This document shows, piece after piece, positions 31,151 through 39,509 of a stretch of DNA of 64,000 nucleotides; within the stretch, counting starts at the first letter, position 1; each line of letters begins with the position of its first letter. The stretch is from the NCBI RefSeq assembly GCF_037042905.1, contig NC_087245.1, positions 20,524,001 through 20,588,000 of the forward strand, read 5' to 3'. The notes below the pieces were generated by a model. It did not search any database. It saw only the letters and a program-made list of their open reading frames with translations, and had not been told where the DNA came from. The stretch comes from Lytechinus pictus. Taxonomy: Eukaryota. The position numbers and the translations under genes were made by a program.

Positions 31151-34100
31151 TATCAAAGTTGTCTCAAGATGATAAAACAAATGACTGACGAGGGATATTT
31201 CAGTTTAATTGGAAAGTCATGATCTTTTTACTTATATCTCCATTAATTATTAAATGGTTATGATCTGTCTGCATTCTGATTATTGCAATTAATATTATAT
31301 TCCCTCACTTCATAATTCCTTCATGCTCCTTGCAAGTGAACTAATTTGGATGACGCACACGTACGCGCTCGTAATAACTCCAAATAGAAAGTTAATGAGG
31401 GGATTTCCCCTCCCAAAAATATCTAGCGGTGGGCGTGGCCAGGTGGGGTGGTACTGGTAGAAGTCTTGGGGAGGTGAGAGGAGAGGAGGGGAGAGGAGAG
31501 CAACGAAAAGAAACAAAAAGGAAAGAAAAGAATAAAAGAAAAGAAGAAAAAAAGGGGAAGTTCAGGGAATGGAAGAATATAATAAGGAGAGGTTGGGTTT
31601 ATAATACCCCTATAACTCAATCGAGAAGAAATATAACGTCATCCCCAGGTCATCTTACCCCCCCCCCCCCTCCCAATCAAAACATCCTGGAACAGCTTCT
31701 GGTTCTAACCTCGAGCTTTCGGATTATAACTCATAACTGCATATTAAAAACATAAAAGCACCCAGTTTAGTCCACAGGGTTCAATATTTGACGCCCCCTT
31801 GCGACGAATACATCAGAATTCTAAACATGATCATTTCAGTATTCTGCTTGGCAGAGAGAGATGGAAAGGGGAGATTTTAATGTATACTCAACTTGCATAT
31901 AAAGCACAATTCGGTGTGGATTTTAAATGAATATCATTCTTTGGCAAGTCTCACAAATAATATTTCTACACAATCGAGAGTTATTCAACATTCCTGAATA
32001 ATATCCTTTATTTTGTTTTCATTTTCCAGTGTCCTTCCCCTTTCAGAAATGTCAGTTTCATTTTGTGGGCAGTTTGGTAAAATAGGTTTTTGAGAAAAAG
32101 CAATAAGTGAACTGATTTTTAATTTCAAAGGATTTCAAGCAAGATTCACTAAATCAATAAAAAATAAAAGAATAATGGACTTGCAGGAGTTTATATTTTT
32201 TACCTAAAGAAAGTTTGGATGCTGAAAATGCTACCTAAAACCGCCTTCAGGAACTTCATAATCCTGGAAACAATTTTCAGTGTAATGAACTAGTGCACAC
32301 TAAGGAACCACCCCAGCAGTTTTTCAATTAGAAGAGTAAGAGGAAGCAGAAATCTACACCAGCCCCCTTTCAACGATTCTGCATACAGGTACAGCTATGC
32401 AATATTAACTTACTTCACATCAAAACAAGATTGAAATCTGAAACCATGAATTTTGGTTCTTAGTTCAAGGAAATTTCAGAGGAGGGGCGGATCCAGGATT
32501 TTTCCAAAAAAAGAGGCCTTCACTTTCAAAAGGAGGGGCACACTTTTGTTTTAACAGCATTTTTACATTACAAATTTTAATTTTGCTTCTCAAAAAGGGG
32601 GGGGGGGCACAGGCCGGCAGTGTTTTGGAGTATATCCTTTAACTGCAAATGATGAAATCTACAAACATAAAAAATCAGGAATGGATGAGGGATGAGCAGG
32701 GTTTTTTTAATGAAATCTTAATGGCTTGATCCTTTGGAATAGAATGTCCAGTATAGTCATTCCCATAACATGAGCCGCAGAATCACAGGGGCTGAGGAGG
32801 ATTCACACTTCCCTACTTTTTCAATATATATATTTTTAAAGAACACCTAATTGTGATTTTTTTTTCACGCCCCCTCCCCACTTTTCAAGGCCATTCCATG
32901 GACCCTGCATAATCATATAATTTCAGATGCTTTCTAAATTTTCCTGTATGACTTTGTTTACTGTAAAAGTTCATCATCATGGCAAAATGTATAATTTCTG
33001 ATACTGTAAAGTGTTTCTTTTTTTCTCCTCATAAGTAATAATCAGAGAAATGCATATTTCATGAAAAAACAAGTCAATGAAAATTAAGTTGTTAAACTGA
33101 GGTTTATTGAAAATAGTACATATAAATGTTTACTATGTATTTCATGATTAAGATTTAACCTTGGCTCCCTTTCTCACAACTGTTGTTTTATTGCTCATAT
33201 AATTTACAGTTATCTTCATCAACATGATGCAATAAAAAACACCTGAAGAATTATTCACTGATCTTCCATCGATCCCTCAGTTAACCCATACTGGCAAATT
33301 AATTCATTGATTCCTATAGCTTTGTAATAGGGACTGCCCAGTTCAAGTAGGCAAAACAATACACAACCCCTAAAATTTTTCTAAAATTAAGCTATAAGTT
33401 TTCTATTCTTTTGTTTCATCTGTATTATTATCTAAAGGATCTTGTATATAAATTAGTTTAAAAATTGTCTTTGTTCTGATTTCAATACACAGGATACTAT
33501 TGTCATTGCTTGACAAATGGATCAAGGTAGTAGTCAAAGACCAACACTCATCTACTATCAACATGCTCAATTATGATATCATTGTAAGACCTACTGCATA
33601 ACCTTAATATTTTTTGGTGGTTTCATTGTCTGTGTTCCACAACTAGACAACTGCAAAATTTGACAAGCTATACGTGCACAACATGGATGGAAAAGCAATA
33701 AAATCATGTTCATGAAATAGCATATTATGCAGTATTGAAAATTATGATTTGAGTCTATTCAATAACAAAGAACAATCCTGCAGGATCAAGGAATTATAAG
33801 ACTTGTGCTGGAGATTGCATCTGCATATCTTACCAAATTACTTGCACACAAAATTATGAAATAAAGGGGTTGCTTTTAACAGCCTGACAATGTACACACT
33901 TACAGTGTTAAGGGTATCAAAACTGCCAAAATCAGGACAGAGGGGTACTTTTCAAACCCGGATAAGGATAGGTAAATTTAAACCTATAAGGCAAATAGAA
34001 TAATTGAGGCATTATTTCTGGTGGGGTAAACTTGAAAAACATTTGTTAAAGGTCTCCGAGATGGAGGGATGTTTTACTTGATATGGGTTCATTTTTAAAA

Positions 34101-35348
34101 AGTCTGTGTATGAGCATGGTTTCTTCCTTGTAATGGTCATGCCCATCCCCAATCAAAATGTTCGCAAATCAATGAAGTTTTAAAACTGGTATGTATGATA
34201 TAATTCTTGCTTTGATCTGTCAACATGATTTTAGATTTCCCTTGATGATGAACCCTTATAATTATTCACCAATGTTACTTCAGTGCCGACCTCACAGACA
34301 CGTTGTTAGCCTAACAGAGCGCTAAGAGTAGGAACAGTCACATCATGTCACATATTTCATATTGTGATGTCAATCGTTGATCCAAGATGTAAATAACCGG
34401 TTGTTGTGACCCAAGTTGCAACATTACTGATTTAAATAGGGCCTCTGTTAGTGCACTGTTTGCGTTAACAACATTTCTGTGCAGCTAGTACAGGTGAACA
34501 GTACAACATTCACACTTATGCTCTTTTATATAGCGCCCAACAAGTCTGTAAGCGCTCTAAAATAATGCAGCATAATTACTCAGGATTTAGCAGAGAAGCT
34601 TTTACATGATCTGCATTTACAAAATAAATCCTGCCATTTTGAATTTACCACATGTAGATTGTCTGCAGGAAGCACAGAGTATTGAAGAATTTCTTACTGA
34701 ATATCATCAACACATGGAGTAAGATTCAAACCTATGATCCTCTGATTGAAAGAGAGCCACAACCACTACACCATGGGGCTTCCACATAATATCATCGAAC
34801 ATATCATAATCACATTTATATGCACATGTTGGAGCCATCCTTCAACAATCTGTGCATATTTCTTCACTGATCTTCTCAGAGAGAAGAAAAACAATGATTT
34901 GACATTGTTATATGTTACGATGCGCGCTACATTTTATGCACATTTATATCAACACACATACTATGAATGTACGTATGCATGCACATATTAATCTGCACCG
35001 CTACGAAGACGATAGAATAAATCCAAAGAACAATCAAATAATTACTGTATCGACCATATTTTTGTATACCAGGCGTAACATGGTGGCATCGGTGAATGAA
35101 ATCGAATCTAACGGACATTGAACAATGATTTGTCAAAGGAAAAGGATTGGAATGCAAAGTTTTGCGATCTACCAGTGGAAAACTGTGAGTACAACCCTAC
35201 CGTAGACTTACGTCGTACGATACATGCTGAGAATGAGAGAGGGTGAAACCGGTCATGGCTGCTGCAATTAATACATTATCATCGGCACTGACTATGGCCT
35301 GGGAAGCGGAAGACGTAGTAACAGCTTTCGCCAGGTTCAAGCAATGGC

Positions 35349-36015
35349 GTGAACTCATGTTTAAAAGTGTATGGAAAAATTGAAATGAGAGCGAAAAAGG
35401 CAGTTACCTCCTGCTCTGGGTGGGCGAGAAAGGGCTTGAGATATACAACAGCTGGACCTTTCGACAATGAGCAGGATAAGCTAGTGACAAAAGTAATCCT
35501 CACCAAATTTAAGCAGCACACAGAGCCCAAAACAAATCATAAAATACACCGATACCATATGACACAATCCCACGACGAAACTGACGATGACTTCCTGACT
35601 AAGTTGACAAATATAGCAGCCAAACGTAGATTCAGAGATGCAGTAGAGCGAGACAACAGTGTTCTTGACCAGTTCATTTGGGGTACCTCATTGAAGGATG
35701 TACAAAAAGCTCTCATCGGGAATGATGAAAGGCTTTCACTCCAGAAAGCTGTAGACATAGCAACAGGTCATGAAGCTACTAATTGGCAGATGTCGCTGAT
35801 GTCTCAAACTACAGGTCGGAAAGTAGATGCTGTGAAAACCTCTCGACCCAAACCTGCCTATCTTCTTCAGGAGAGAGGGCAACAGAAGGAGCAGTCCAAA
35901 ATGCAGAAATTGTGGGAGACAACATGATTTCTCAAGGAGAGAGAACTGCCCAGCATTTCACACTGAATGCAAAGCATGTGGGAAACAAAATCACTGGGAA
36001 TCTGTATGCATATCA
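35349..36015 (+). pseudogene. gag: Gypsy gag remnant with two zinc knuckles (frameshifted)
   Basis: Q..DET.DDFLTKL..IA...F, LDQFIWG, LSLQKAVDIA..HE motifs; another frame at ~35898-36010 reads KCRNCGRQH...NCPAFHTECKACGKQNHWESVC. Confidence 0.85.
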
Positions 36016-36189
36016 GCAAAGCAAAATACACCCAGAAATGAATAGAGTCCCAACAAGAAAGTCTACTTACAGACAGAGGAAAGTGCACAATATTAGCAAG
36101 AATACCTAGATATTGGTGCGATCCAAATACACAGCGTAGACGAAGCAAACAAATCAAGATGTCTATGCCTTCATCCAGATCCAGAAATA

Positions 36190-37390
36190 CATCAGGGATC
36201 GGCCAACTACGGTAAAGCTCAAAGTGAAGGGAGCCGAAAGCAATGTGCTACCTATGCGTATCTACAAGCAGATTTTTCCAGAACACATCGAAGATGGATA
36301 TCCAAAGAAAGGTGTGCTAGAGCCGAGCAACACTACTCTCCTGGCATATGGAGAGATTCGAGTCTGCCAGCCAGGTGTATCCAGAATAACGGGTCATCTT
36401 AAAGGGACCAACAAGAGTGTTGATGAGCATTTCCTTGTGACTGATGCAAAGGGAGAAGCAATATTCGGACTAGACAGCTGTTTGGATCTTGGTCTAATCA
36501 CCATACATAACGTGAACAAGAAGGAACCAGGCGTAGCACGCATTGACCCTGACACACCCATAGACAAACGGCCTCCAGTCAGGAATAAAGCAGATATATT
36601 GGCAATGTATCCAGAGTGCTTTGATGAGTGTAGGGTGTTTTGATGATATCCAATACCACATTACTGTGGACAACAGCATTCAGCCAGTCATACACCCACC
36701 ACGTCGGGTAGCATTTGAATTGAGGGAGAGGCTGCAACAAGAGCAGACCAACATGGAAGAGAAAGGAGTTATTACCAAGGTTGAGACTCCTACTGACTGG
36801 GTCAACTCTATCGTAGTGAAGGAAAAGCCCAATGGTAAACTACGAATATGTTTGGACCCTCGAGATCTCAAAACAGCATTAAAGCGGGACCATTACCCAA
36901 TGCCCACACTGGAAGAGATCACCCCACATCTCGATGGGGCACAAGTCTTCAGTAAACTGGATGCCAGTAATGGATACTGGAATACGCCTTTTGGGCGATG
37001 CTGTTTAAACAGACTTCCATTTGGACTAGGAGTAAGTCAAGACGTGTTTCAAATGAAGATAGATGAGACATACAAGAACTGCAAAGGTGCTGTAGGCATA
37101 GCAGATGACATACAGATCTATGGAAAGGACAATCAGAGTCATGATTACAACCTGCATGAGGCCATGGAAAACACAAGGTGAGCTGGGATCAAGTTAAATG
37201 CAGAGAAATGCATTATCAAAGTCCAAGAATGCAGCTTCTTTGGGTTGGTCTATTCTGCTGATGGTGTAAAACCGGAAATGAAAAAGATAGAAGCTATCAA
37301 TCAGATAGAGCCACCATCCAAAAAGAAGGAACTACGAAGCTTCTTGGGGCTGATCCAGTACCTTGGTTCATTCATACCAAACCTAGCTGC
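36190..37390 (+). pseudogene. pol: Gypsy pol remnant: decayed aspartic protease and reverse transcriptase; RNase H and integrase absent
   Basis: VKLKVKGAESNVLP (damaged DTGA region); RT motifs LRICLDPRDL, HYPMPTLEEI, FSKLDASNGYW, TPFGR, RLPFGL, IADDIQIYG, LRSFLGLIQYL..FIPNLA; contains frameshifts, a deletion and a stop. Confidence 0.93.
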
Positions 37391-37504
37391 CACCATGTTA
37401 CGCCTGGTATATAAAAACATGGTCAATTGAAACGATAATTATTTTATTGTTCTTTTGTTTTATTCTATCATCTTCATAGCAGTGCGGATTAATGAGTGCA
37501 TGCA

Positions 37505-37923
37505 GGTTTATTTCCAATTCGTCTCATGCCAATCCGTCCAATTGCCAGCTTGTCTACTATCATTTGGTCTATTATCAGTTCGTCGACCCGCCACATGGTC
37601 TATTTTCATTTAGTCTAATGCTGTTCCATCCAATAACCAGTTGGTCCAAATAACCAATTAGTCCATATACCATTTGGTCTAATTGGATTAAGTATTGAAT
37701 TGTGCAAAATGAATGAGAATAAAATGGATATTAGACCAACTGGTTATGAGACGAAATGGTCATAGACGAAATGATAATTAGACAAAGTGATGATTGGAAC
37801 AAATGGTTAATGGACCAAATGATTGTTAAACGAAATATAGATGGACGTAATGGCATTAGACTAAATGAAAGTAGACCATGTGGTGAGTGGACGAGTTGGC
37901 AGTAGACGTATTGGCAATTTACC
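37505..37923. mobile_element. MITE with 9-bp TSD (Merlin- or MULE-like) nested in the inverted LTR
   Basis: Ends GGTTTATTTCCAA / TTGGCAATTTACC, internal ~20-bp inverted subrepeats (gtctact / agtagac), TSD gtgcatgca / gtgcataca; absent from the left LTR. Confidence 0.75.
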
Positions 37924-38333
37924 GTGCATACATACGTGTACATTCATAGTATATGTATGTGTGATGATCAAAATGTGCATAAATTCTAGTGCGCATCGCA
38001 ACATATAACAGACATTATCAATAAACTGTACTTTCCATCAAGAGAATAAATTTATGTGCAAAAGCTGAATCCAATAAATGAAACTGAGGTAATAATATAT
38101 AGGGCCTATCTGTAAATCGTTTTGCATGCTTACAATCTATTTATGAAGCTCTACATAAAAGTAATTAGAATTATCATTTATGTTAAGAAACCTTTCTATG
38201 AGGCACACAATACCCAAGAAATGAGCACCCATCAACGTAAGCATCCAATTTAACATACAGATTCGTTCAGCTAGAAGTCCTCTCTTCTCTGCTTCCACTG
38301 TAGACTTAATAGTTAATTTCATTCCTTCTTTCA

Positions 38334-38460
38334 TCACGTTTCTTCTTGTTGTTGCTCTTGTTTGAGTTTGTTTTTAAGATGTTCATTGATGGTGGCAAAT
38401 GGGTTTTTCTTGAATGCAGAATGCTTCAGAACTTCATGGAATCTTGCACTCTCTTCTAGC
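38334..38460 (-). CDS. SLX9: SLX9/FAM207A-like, last coding exon (LEESARFHEVLKHSAFKKNPFATINEHLKNKLKQEQQQEET*)
   Basis: Acceptor tttag|, TGA at 38336-38334; E..RF..VL..SAF..NP..AI..HL C-terminal motif. Spliced CDS 627 nt = 208 aa + stop. Confidence 0.9.
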
Positions 38461-39509
38461 CTAAACCAGATGGGAGAAGTAAAATCGAAGATTAAAAACA
38501 ACAAATAAGTGGACTTCCACCATAATCTATGCCTGAGAGCGAATCAAATTGCCCTGCTCTATTGACTCAGTTGTATCAGTTGGTACTTATAAGGGTCGAT
38601 GTAACATCCTGAACAAAGTTACTTTATTCAAAGTCTTAAATCAATGCTTTTATAGTTGATGAATAGAAGCAGGAAGTGGATCAATAGACACTAGTCAACA
38701 GCACTAATCTCCTTTGAATAGAATTCTACCAAGTATTGTCTTGGCTCTTTTCTTCTATCAATCTTTTCATCATTGAAATGTAAGAGCTCAACATTAACTG
38801 CAAAGGTCATGGGAGAACTAAACTCAATGACCTCTGCCATAGGCAAAATTACATTATGATAGTCTTGATACATAGTGCTTAACTTTTGAAAAAGCGCTAA
38901 ATAAGAAGTAATTATTATTATTATTTATTATACATATACCCTTTTCATAAAATCATTGCAAATATATCGTGAATTGGGTTTTAGACATTTTGATGACCAT
39001 TTGATCTTTATTGCCACCCGTTCACACAGTAAAAAAATTGAAATTTGAGTGATGATTCCAGTGAAAAATAAGGCTAATGACAAATTTTTAGCACATGTGA
39101 AACCAAACTAGAATCACGAACGCTAATCACAATCACAAATTCAAATTCTACTCCGAAGGTGAATTCCAATTAAGTTTCACACAAATTAGGGTACAAATTT
39201 TCTGGGTGAACGGTCCAATGATTCTAAAGACATCATCATTACAACGATGATTCAATGCAAGTGTTTTGTTTCTGCATATATTGTGGTATGAATGTTTTAA
39301 AGAGTAGCAGAAAATGGTTCATAATTATACATCATAAGACTAAATGATTAAAATGTTACATTTTGGGTGAGAATCCAGGAACTACACCATAGTTTTGGTC
39401 TTGTGCTGGCTCTTGCTCAAATTTGGTGTGGTATATTGGCTTTAAATAAAAAGAACAAGAGCAAAAACTATATTCATGTATGCCTGATTGCCATACATGC
39501 CATACTTAC

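Follow-up and report, generated by a model that had tools for sequence, protein, structure and literature searches.

A decayed Ty3/Gypsy-type copy that ends in its own inverted 5' LTR and primer-binding site: a probable product of aberrant reverse transcription

How does an LTR retrotransposon come to finish with its own beginning? The question is raised by the unit at 34901-38015 of the window (the whole 64-kb stretch of DNA that was analysed), an old and dead Gypsy-type copy whose pol is broken off inside reverse transcriptase (RT) and capped by the element's own 5' end placed back to front. The preliminary description had claimed this inverted-LTR layout, and it is real, both by direct reading and by repeat search. 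The order read off the sequence is LTR, primer-binding site (PBS), gag, protease (PR) and partial RT, followed by 10 nt of PBS complement and an inverted LTR, the whole lying between direct GACAT repeats.

Layout of the unit

The repeat search returns three inverted pairs that tie the two ends together (34906-34961/37955-38010 at 88%, 34976-35051/37429-37504 at 84% and 35049-35088/37388-37427 at 93%, pairs I3, I1 and I4, respectively), and the features are as follows.

34901-34905, no strand: target-site duplication, left copy, GACAT (direct reading; identical to 38011-38015)
34906-35080, plus: left LTR, 175 nt, with TGTTA...TAACA termini (direct reading, repeat search, LTR alignment)
35081-35094, plus: primer-binding site TGGTGGCATCGGTG (complementary to the tRNA-Leu(AAG) 3' end plus CCA)
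35255-36050, plus: degraded gag in three frames (nearest same-genome gag 41% identical)
36161-36631, plus: protease-like region (44% identity to relative P0003)
36594-37388, plus: reverse transcriptase up to the connection region (70% identity to P0003)
37386-37395, minus: reverse complement of the first 10 PBS bases, TGGTGGCAGC (10/10 to tRNA-Leu)
37396-37504, minus: inverted LTR, inner (U5-side) part (repeat search, LTR alignment)
37505-37923, no strand: 419-nt TIR element, a later insertion (inverted-identical ends; contig depth)
37924-37932, no strand: second copy of the TIR element's 9-nt target duplication (direct reading)
37933-38010, minus: inverted LTR, outer (U3-side) part, ending ...CATATAACA (repeat search, LTR alignment)
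38011-38015, no strand: target-site duplication, right copy, GACAT (direct reading)

An Rfam search of 34000-39000 gave no matches, and there are no tRNA genes within the 64-kb window.

The left LTR reads TGTTAT...GTAACA, and the right one occupies 37396-38010 in inverted orientation, split at 37505-37932. Aligning the two with the interruption left out, a check proposed in the preliminary description, gives 154 matches, 21 mismatches and three indels covering 12 columns, which amounts to a complete inverted LTR with 21/175 substitutions (12%). Both LTR termini start with TGTTA, and there are U3 ends on both outer sides. The inverted LTR extends precisely to its first base, beyond which come GACAT and then unrelated unique sequence. 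The two GACAT copies had been claimed to be in direct orientation, as they indeed are. What follows the right LTR is not the left flank in reverse complement (ATGTCAAATC...), and GACAT is thus a direct repeat that lies outside the inverted repeat. Its 5 bp are the usual target-duplication length in the Ty3/Gypsy lineage, for which 4-6 bp would be expected, and a 5/5 match by chance at the local base composition (0.0016) is rare, possible nonetheless. The two direct LTRs and the polypurine tract before the 3' LTR that are required of a Ty3/Gypsy element are absent, the 15 nt just inside the second LTR (ACCTAGCTGCCACCA) being devoid of such a tract. The unit is therefore a derivative of a Ty3/Gypsy member, not a normal copy.

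The interruption of the right LTR, previously described as a single block, is present and consists of two parts, that is, a TIR element, of whose terminal bases 28/36 are inverted-identical, and a 9-nt target duplication (GTGCATACA, matched by GTGCATGCA at 37496-37504). The copy number of the TIR element is very high, with a summed contig depth of 10^4-10^5 compared with about 40-90 alongside, and contigs have loose ends at its borders, 37505 and 37923. A second organism's copy of the unit is free of it (in a contig, X1 record 4, 224 nt correspond to 688 nt of the window).

At the left end, a host-tRNA PBS directly follows the LTR, as expected of Ty3/Gypsy, and 13/14 of its bases (13/18) are complementary to the 3' end of tRNA-Leu(AAG) plus CCA. 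The tRNA-Leu complementarity put forward earlier thus holds against the genome's own tRNA-Leu(AAG) genes. Both of the PBSs described are present, with one correction: the left copy has T, not G, at position 9, and only the right copy has the tRNA-matching G there. In the right copy, which adjoins the inverted LTR, 10/10 bases match tRNA-Leu(AAG). As the inverted LTR is preceded by these bases, the right end corresponds to a 5' LTR plus PBS, as in strong-stop plus DNA.

The RT reading meets the PBS complement at 37386-37395, and the junction (AACCTA / GCTGCCACCA / TGTTACGCC) has the sequence originally given. The 10 PBS-complement bases are there, but the first three or four of them (GCT, perhaps G) are equally attributable to pol. 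In 9/9 relatives from other animals, the motif FIP[K/R]LA is followed by [D/N][H/R/L]T, while here homology to the relatives ends after the Ala codon GCT (37386-37388), where the PBS complement starts. The search for pol/PBS microhomology suggested by the preliminary description therefore points to a possible 3-4 nt, deduced from amino acids only, the nearest relatives being just 59-70% identical in protein.

The Gypsy assignment stands, the RT relatives and best PDB matches (Ty3 RT 4ol8 and Ty3 Gag-Pol 7q5b) being Ty3/Gypsy. In gag, split over three frames, a CX2CX4HX4C knuckle can be read by eye in the piece at 35836-36045; the nearest gag in the same genome is 41% identical, and a Pfam search with gag gave no match. 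RVT_1 was the sole Pfam hit among five ORF pieces, and its 26.9 bits fall short of the 29.6-bit cut-off. The protease-like region is on the 5' side of RT (PR before RT) and has a 3-residue gap where the relative holds the D-T of the catalytic D-T-G. RT has a 14-residue gap after NGYW and an in-frame TGA at 37179-37181, and it keeps the ADD motif. It is 66-70% identical to polyproteins with RVT_1, RT_RNaseH_2, RT_RNaseH, Integrase_H2C2 and rve domains (PF00078, PF17919, PF17917, PF17921 and PF00665). The Ty3/Gypsy RT lineage and the PR-RT-RH-IN order with a DDE integrase are thus found via these relatives, RH and IN being missing from this copy through truncation. When the full-length relative P0003 (1330 aa) was compared with the whole 64-kb window by tblastn, the only match was at 36161-37388, and the window contains neither RNase H nor integrase remnants, be it from a first or a second element.

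Copy number and a second organism

The element is single-copy in the assembly. Against its 812 Mb, in searches whose counts are all lower bounds, the RT DNA matches once (itself) and the 2315-nt interior once, and a 24-nt word spanning the LTR end and PBS matches twice with up to three mismatches, both times in this element and on opposite strands. Other copies with the same junction, which the preliminary description had proposed to look for, did not turn up: a 28-nt junction word with up to three mismatches has one match in 812 Mb. A multi-copy, TIR-like non-autonomous family, the alternative raised at the outset, is rejected on these single junction and interior matches (again lower bounds). 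The LTR as query does find 10 other places in the same assembly at 77-82% identity. They are 110-140-nt segments of a non-coding repeat that is 1.65 kb long or longer; their flanks are shared, they have neither a Gypsy coding match nor a PBS, and they are not copies of this element.

Contigs from the second organism contain the same junction and the same flanks. X1 record 4 (954 nt, from one study) covers 37130-37504 and then 38193-38468, and X3 record 16 (from another study) covers 34535-34960. The between-organism divergence inside the element is 47/482 and 40/375, about 10%. Because the 12% between the two LTRs is barely greater than this, the LTRs would have been almost the same in sequence around the time of insertion. 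Instead of an orthologue, the copy in the second organism could be a diverged haplotype or a paralogue; low-depth contigs with the second organism's variants are present in runs that contain the window allele. The X1 and X3 contigs have zero depth over 35918-37021, a hole in contigs that is no proof of absence.

For the window's own organism, no contig among those listed bridges 37394-37423. X7 record 30 and X10 record 14 both stop at 37393 and contigs restart at 37424, a break that may reflect a bubble in the assembly graph. According to the depth tables, X7 and X10 have cover in the junction bin. As for an empty site, there is no paralogous one in the same assembly, where the only matches to the left flank's last 118 nt and to the entire right flank are these sequences themselves, and no joint skipping 34906-38010 is among the joints listed for contigs of four runs, which we do not count as evidence. 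With no empty site found, insertion as a single unit is something that we infer rather than observe.

How the unit may have arisen

We consider it probable (roughly 0.7) that the unit is one aberrant Ty3/Gypsy reverse-transcription product, inserted in a single event by the element's integrase. Insertion as one unit and the strong-stop mechanism are both well-supported readings of the evidence, short of demonstration. The arrangement would fit strong-stop mispriming, from which a complete U3-R-U5 and a tRNA-templated PBS copy inverted onto plus-sense pol are expected, and the 3-4 nt overlap is compatible with it.

The proposed series of events would run as follows: (i) plus-strand strong-stop DNA, consisting of U3-R-U5 and the first 10 nt copied from the tRNA-Leu primer, with a 3' end ...CAGC, would pair via 3-4 nt with plus-sense pol DNA ending in or reading ...CTAGCTG; (ii) in the simplest version, two nascent plus strands would anneal 3' end to 3' end and each would be extended on the other, so that a single step would produce a blunt duplex terminating in U3 on both sides; (iii) integrase, which could handle two U3 ends since both LTR termini begin with TGTTA, would process them and make its usual 5-bp staggered cut; and (iv) frameshifts, the in-frame stop, the PR and RT gaps and the 12% LTR divergence, which indicates that the event is old, would have accumulated afterwards, with the TIR element entering the right LTR later. 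Normal strong-stop plus DNA carries 18 PBS bases, so the 10 seen here need the extra assumption of an early stop or a switch during tRNA copying.

Of the rival explanations, the one that survives best, improbable as it is, has integrase joining the U3 ends of two separate broken cDNAs to one staggered cut, with host end joining then sealing the inner ends, so that the junction would be a repair joint. This would account equally well for the target duplication and the two U3 ends, and the short microhomology fits end joining too. Concerted integration in vitro commonly uses two separate donor ends, with which such an event would be in line. However, both molecules would have to be in one integration complex, and the inner break of the second would have to land by chance within the PBS, 10 nt past the LTR, whereas reverse transcription naturally ends a DNA species at the PBS.

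Somewhat less credible are two independent insertions of the same family, tail to tail, and a subsequent deletion that took out the first element's 3' part and the intervening DNA and left of the second only the 5' LTR and 10 PBS bases, GACAT being coincidental. Neighbouring repeats commonly undergo deletion between them, the overlap of 3-4 nt is also what microhomology-mediated end joining might leave, and the LTRs do differ by 12%, but this divergence is almost wholly accounted for by that between organisms. This history would also demand the 0.0016 coincidence for the 5-bp repeat, a deletion end falling inside the 18-nt PBS of a several-kb element, and the only two LTR-end/PBS words in 812 Mb lying 2.3 kb apart, and there is no remnant of a second element's pol. 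With the family otherwise absent, two independent insertions that close to each other are very unlikely.

It is less plausible again that a normal insertion was rearranged later, through a fold-back or replication template switch in which a reversed copy of the 5' LTR and PBS took the place of the 3' half. Replication-based switches do use microhomology of a few bases, like the GCTG overlap, but the copying would have continued past the LTR into the left flank, in reverse complement; the inverted LTR instead stops base-exactly, so that a second, base-exact switch would be required. Finally, a mis-assembly that put the inverted LTR onto RT, suggested by the stretch that own-organism contigs among those listed leave unspanned, can hardly be maintained when X1 record 4, from the other organism and another study, spans the junction into the right flank and the X7 and X10 depth tables show cover in the junction bin.

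If the aberrant-cDNA reading is right, it would have several implications: (i) inside a Ty3/Gypsy particle, reverse transcription can link strong-stop plus DNA with plus-sense pol DNA via a few bases of homology, (ii) concerted integration in vivo still accepts a molecule that has U3 at both ends and lacks a U5 end and (iii) such products can be long-lived, this one being common to two diverged organisms. For annotation, there is a warning that LTR finders demanding direct repeats will miss or split such copies. A systematic search for LTR pairs in inverted orientation, each LTR with a PBS word on its inner side, would give the frequency of this side-pathway. As one decayed copy with no sign of function, the unit is relevant to mechanism, not to host biology. 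From its arrangement, a transcript across the locus would be predicted to form a long double-stranded RNA by pairing of the LTR with its inverted copy (about 175 nt, the two being identical at first), and it is a distant speculation that such a hairpin locus triggered small-RNA silencing of the family's LTR. Were this true, it would explain why no other family copy survives here while close relatives thrive in other animal phyla.

Comparison with known systems

With ordinary Ty3/Gypsy elements, the unit shares TG...CA LTRs, a tRNA-complementary PBS after the LTR, a CCHC gag knuckle, PR, RT and a 5-bp target duplication. It differs from them in that the second LTR is inverted, a PBS complement replaces the polypurine tract, pol ends in the RT connection region and both termini are U3. 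A likeness in arrangement is in an avian retrovirus, in which a 1985 paper reportedly described an inverted LTR joined via PBS sequence to internal viral sequence and ascribed it to plus strong-stop mispriming. Those molecules are said to have been unintegrated, in infected cells, whereas here we deal with a Gypsy element that is integrated in the germ line and flanked by a target duplication. A literature search, in which subscription journals and older papers were thinly covered, found no case of an integrated LTR element in which one LTR is inverted and a second PBS is present, and a paper on Ty1 integrase contained nothing on donors with two like ends.

In HIV-1, according to the available excerpts of the reports, defective proviruses arise through aberrant plus-strand transfers, either premature or deferred with tRNA sequence copied in (PMC12657518), and inversions affect 2/78 proviruses (PMC9278108). 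Errors at the plus-strand transfer step (PMC12657518) would be common to those defective proviruses and the present unit. However, the HIV-1 transfers land on the minus strand and lead to deletions or tRNA inserts with direct LTRs; an inverted LTR with a second PBS is not described in these excerpts.

Membership of DIRS was considered and rejected, since the relatives carry rve/Integrase_H2C2 and there is a 5-bp direct duplication (the copy being truncated, the recombinase was judged from the relatives). DIRS elements have a tyrosine recombinase, an internal complementary region and no target duplication. Their ends are inverted and LTR-like and their RT is related to that of Gypsy (PMC7192593, PMC3950715). 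In contrast, the relatives of the present unit have a DDE integrase, its 5-bp duplication is present and its inverted end duplicates the 5' LTR plus PBS of the element itself.

A last parallel is twin priming, in which a second priming at a short microhomology leaves an inverted segment inside a single target duplication. In 5'-inverted LINE-1 insertions, the inverted segment arises within one insertion event (PMC2912911). Twin-primed LINE-1 is a non-LTR element, target-primed on the chromosome, whereas what we propose here is a cytoplasmic cDNA inserted by integrase. Set beside these systems, this single fossil is a new variation on already known aberrant reverse transcription.

Anatomy of the inverted-LTR insertion

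Direct reading of 34700-38300, together with a repeat search, bears out the structure claimed in the preliminary description, that is, a Gypsy copy with inverted LTRs and a perfect 5-bp direct repeat at both ends.

Features of the insertion (window positions)
34901-34905, GACAT, left copy of the direct repeat
34906-35080, + strand, left LTR, 175 nt, TGTTAT...GTAACA (direct reading and repeat search)
Immediately 3' of the left LTR, + strand, left PBS, TGGTGGCATCGGTG
After the left PBS, about 2.3 kb, + strand, coding remnants (direct reading)
37396-38010, - strand, right LTR, inverted copy of the left, ending ...CATATAACA, interrupted at 37505-37932
37505-37923, TIR element in the right LTR, 419 nt, 28/36 terminal bases inverted-identical
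37496-37504 and 37924-37932, 9-nt target duplication of the TIR element, GTGCATGCA and GTGCATACA
38011-38015, GACAT, right copy of the direct repeat

The repeat search returned inverted pairs I3 (56 nt, 88%), I1 (76 nt, 84%) and I4 (40 nt, 93%), and the LTRs, aligned with 37505-37932 excluded, show 154 matches, 21 mismatches (12 transitions and 9 transversions) and three indels spanning 12 columns. The 24 nt spanning the LTR end and PBS start (35065-35088 and 37388-37411) are identical in the two inverted copies; about three differences would be expected with LTRs 12% apart overall, and complete identity has a probability of about 0.05. The reverse complement of the left flank (ATGTCAAATC...) was sought 3' of the right LTR and is not there, so GACAT is no extension of the inverted repeat. 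The element (43-47% G+C) lies in AT-rich surroundings (33-37%) devoid of long ORFs, with no Rfam match over 34000-39000 and no tRNA genes within the 64-kb window. Its right flank is unique, as are the 118 nt adjoining it on the left, beyond which 34417-34787 consists of other repeats. The summed contig depth of the TIR element (10^4 to 6x10^5 in four runs, versus ~40-90 alongside) points to a very abundant MITE-like family.

A tRNA 3'-end pattern complementary to the PBS matched 59 places in the 812-Mb assembly (reversed control, 0), and ARAGORN called tRNA-Leu(AAG) at 2/2 loci taken from these, both genes ending ...GGTTCGAATCCCACCGCTGCCA. Against an expected PBS built from this 3' end plus the added CCA, the left PBS fits 13/14 (13/18), with T instead of G at position 9, and the reverse complement of 37386-37395 fits 10/10, with pol sequence next; the tRNA-Leu complementarity proposed earlier thus holds. 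There is no polypurine tract at the inner side of the right LTR, and the 10/10 complement beside it identifies the right end as a 5' LTR plus PBS start, not a 3' LTR. The single G/T difference between the PBS copies is what 12% divergence would give over 10 bases, or it may come from templating of the right copy by the tRNA itself. On contig C12 (G000), 22 pattern matches within 32 kb (3034630-3066477) form a tandem tRNA-Leu gene array, one member of which (L087) was confirmed by ARAGORN.

Family membership and copy number

The coding pieces are spread over all three frames. A gag-like part begins at ATG 35255, and the piece 35836-36045 contains a CX2CX4HX4C knuckle, identified by eye. Compared with P0003 (a full-length relative polyprotein), the protease-like part shows 44% identity and a three-residue gap where P0003 has the D-T of the catalytic motif D-T-G; the RT shows 70% identity and keeps its ADD motif, with a 14-residue gap after NGYW and an in-frame TGA (37179-37181). 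Pfam returned a sub-threshold RVT_1 in 1/5 pieces and nothing else. The best relatives in a large protein collection are polyproteins of sea urchin, lancelets and octopus (66-70% identical) carrying RVT_1, RT_RNaseH_2, RT_RNaseH, Integrase_H2C2 and rve, and the best solved-structure matches are Ty3 RT and Ty3 Gag-Pol, which by sequence place the element in Ty3/Gypsy; the DIRS identity suggested by the inverted ends was rejected on the same grounds. The RT (36564-37388) is 62-70% identical to sea urchin, lancelet and octopus elements (P0001-P0017), and no other copy within its genome exceeds 55%. Judged by these identities, the family has a patchy distribution, owing either to loss or to horizontal transfer.

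In the 812-Mb assembly, where match counts are lower bounds, the RT DNA (496 nt) and whole interior (2315 nt) each matched only themselves, the latter query revealing no second haplotype or paralogue. The search for other copies with the same junction (28-nt word, up to three mismatches) found one place, and the 24-nt LTR-end/PBS word (same tolerance) two, both within the element on opposite strands. Elsewhere in the genome, the closest gag and RT reach 41% and 55% identity, respectively. P0003 has no match in the 64-kb window outside the element's own, hence no RNase H or integrase remnant there. The LTR query hit 10 other places (77-82% identity), which were rejected as family copies: they are a 110-140-nt segment of a non-coding repeat 1.65 kb or more in length, with flanks common to each other and neither PBS nor Gypsy coding match. 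This segment lies at ~1500-1640 in loci L002, L004-L009 and L011-L013 and is ~80% identical to the LTR's first 140 nt; copies of the repeat are 73-97% alike, with both flanks in common. The element is a single decayed copy without evident function.

The locus in a second organism

Four runs, each in the form of contigs, were compared. X7 and X10, which come from a single study and may be the source of the window, carry its allele and extend across the left border (X7 record 24, 34400-34983); among the contigs listed, theirs stop at 37393 and resume at 37424. The runs of a second organism, X1 and X3, are ~90% alike to the window. X3 record 16 (34535-34960) spans the left border, and X1 record 4, a 954-nt contig from a different study, covers 37130-37504 (RT, junction and inner LTR), so the junction is no assembly artefact. 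This contig resumes in the right flank (38193-38468) after 224 nt, versus 688 nt in the window, which fits a missing 419-nt TIR element plus 9-nt duplication. The second organism's copy thus seems to lack the TIR element; the insertion predates the divergence of these lineages, and the TIR element arrived later.

Differences between the organisms amount to 47/482 and 40/375 positions in the element, and LTR-LTR differences (21/175) are only slightly above this, which implies that the LTRs were near-identical when the copy arose. Over 34400-38468, X1 and X3 diverge from the window by ~10% in the element and 3.6-6% in the flanks (10/276 to 14/237), reflecting either faster decay of the element or constraint on the flanks. 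Low-depth X7/X10 contigs over 35426-36430 (depth 12-21 versus ~50) are ~85-90% like the window. They have variants in common with the second organism (e.g. 35625, 35690, 35708, 35736 and 35764), so that its copy may be a diverged haplotype or paralogue instead of a clean orthologue.

Origin of the inverted structure

How this observed anatomy arose we infer from the textbook retroviral reverse-transcription scheme. Among normal intermediates, a complete U3-R-U5 followed by copied tRNA 3'-end sequence is found only in plus-strand strong-stop DNA. If such a strand ended or switched once 10 bases of the tRNA had been copied, its 3' end (...CAGC) could anneal to plus-sense pol DNA that reads or ends ...GCTG. 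Mutual extension of the two 3' ends would produce, in a single step, a blunt duplex, LTR-PBS-gag-PR-RT/PBS'-LTR', with a U3 terminus at each end. Since TGTTA begins both LTR termini, the two ends presented to integrase would be nearly the same; in vitro, intasomes are routinely assembled on pairs of identical ends. This is essentially the strong-stop mis-priming put forward in the preliminary description, and we consider an aberrant reverse-transcription product, inserted as one unit, probable (about 0.7).

The pol junction is compatible with the microhomology that the same description expected there. In 9/9 relatives from other animals, FIP(K/R)LA is followed by (D/N)(H/R/L)T; the window has FIPNLA, then ATM. 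In the genome's own more distant Gypsy copies (43-52% identity), F(I/L)PNL is followed by S, A or T in 28/29. The tblastn match of P0003 ends at 37388 with the Ala codon GCT, which doubles as the start of the PBS complement GCTGCCACCA, and the next G would be shared too if the ancestor had Asp, as in 8/9 relatives. This overlap allows 3-4 nt of microhomology, a figure deduced from amino acids alone.

Two broken cDNAs joined after integration of two U3 ends would explain the target duplication but make the joint's position at the PBS a coincidence, and we regard this as improbable. Slightly less credible are two independent insertions followed by a deletion, which need a 0.0016 coincidence for the 5/5 GACAT match (at flank base composition), a deletion with one end within the PBS, and a spacing of 2.3 kb between the family's only two LTR/PBS words in 812 Mb. 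A later fold-back rearrangement of a normal insertion ranks just below, since copying should run on into the left flank and no such sequence is seen. Mis-assembly, contradicted by X1 record 4, is the least plausible of all.

No description of an integrated LTR retrotransposon with such anatomy was found in the literature searched, which included few older or subscription papers; aberrant reverse-transcription products are already known. A 1985 J Virol paper reportedly described retroviral DNA that was unintegrated, carried an inverted LTR and had arisen by strong-stop mispriming. Plus-strand transfer errors are documented for HIV-1 proviruses (PMC12657518), and inversions are found in a few percent of proviruses (2/78; PMC9278108).
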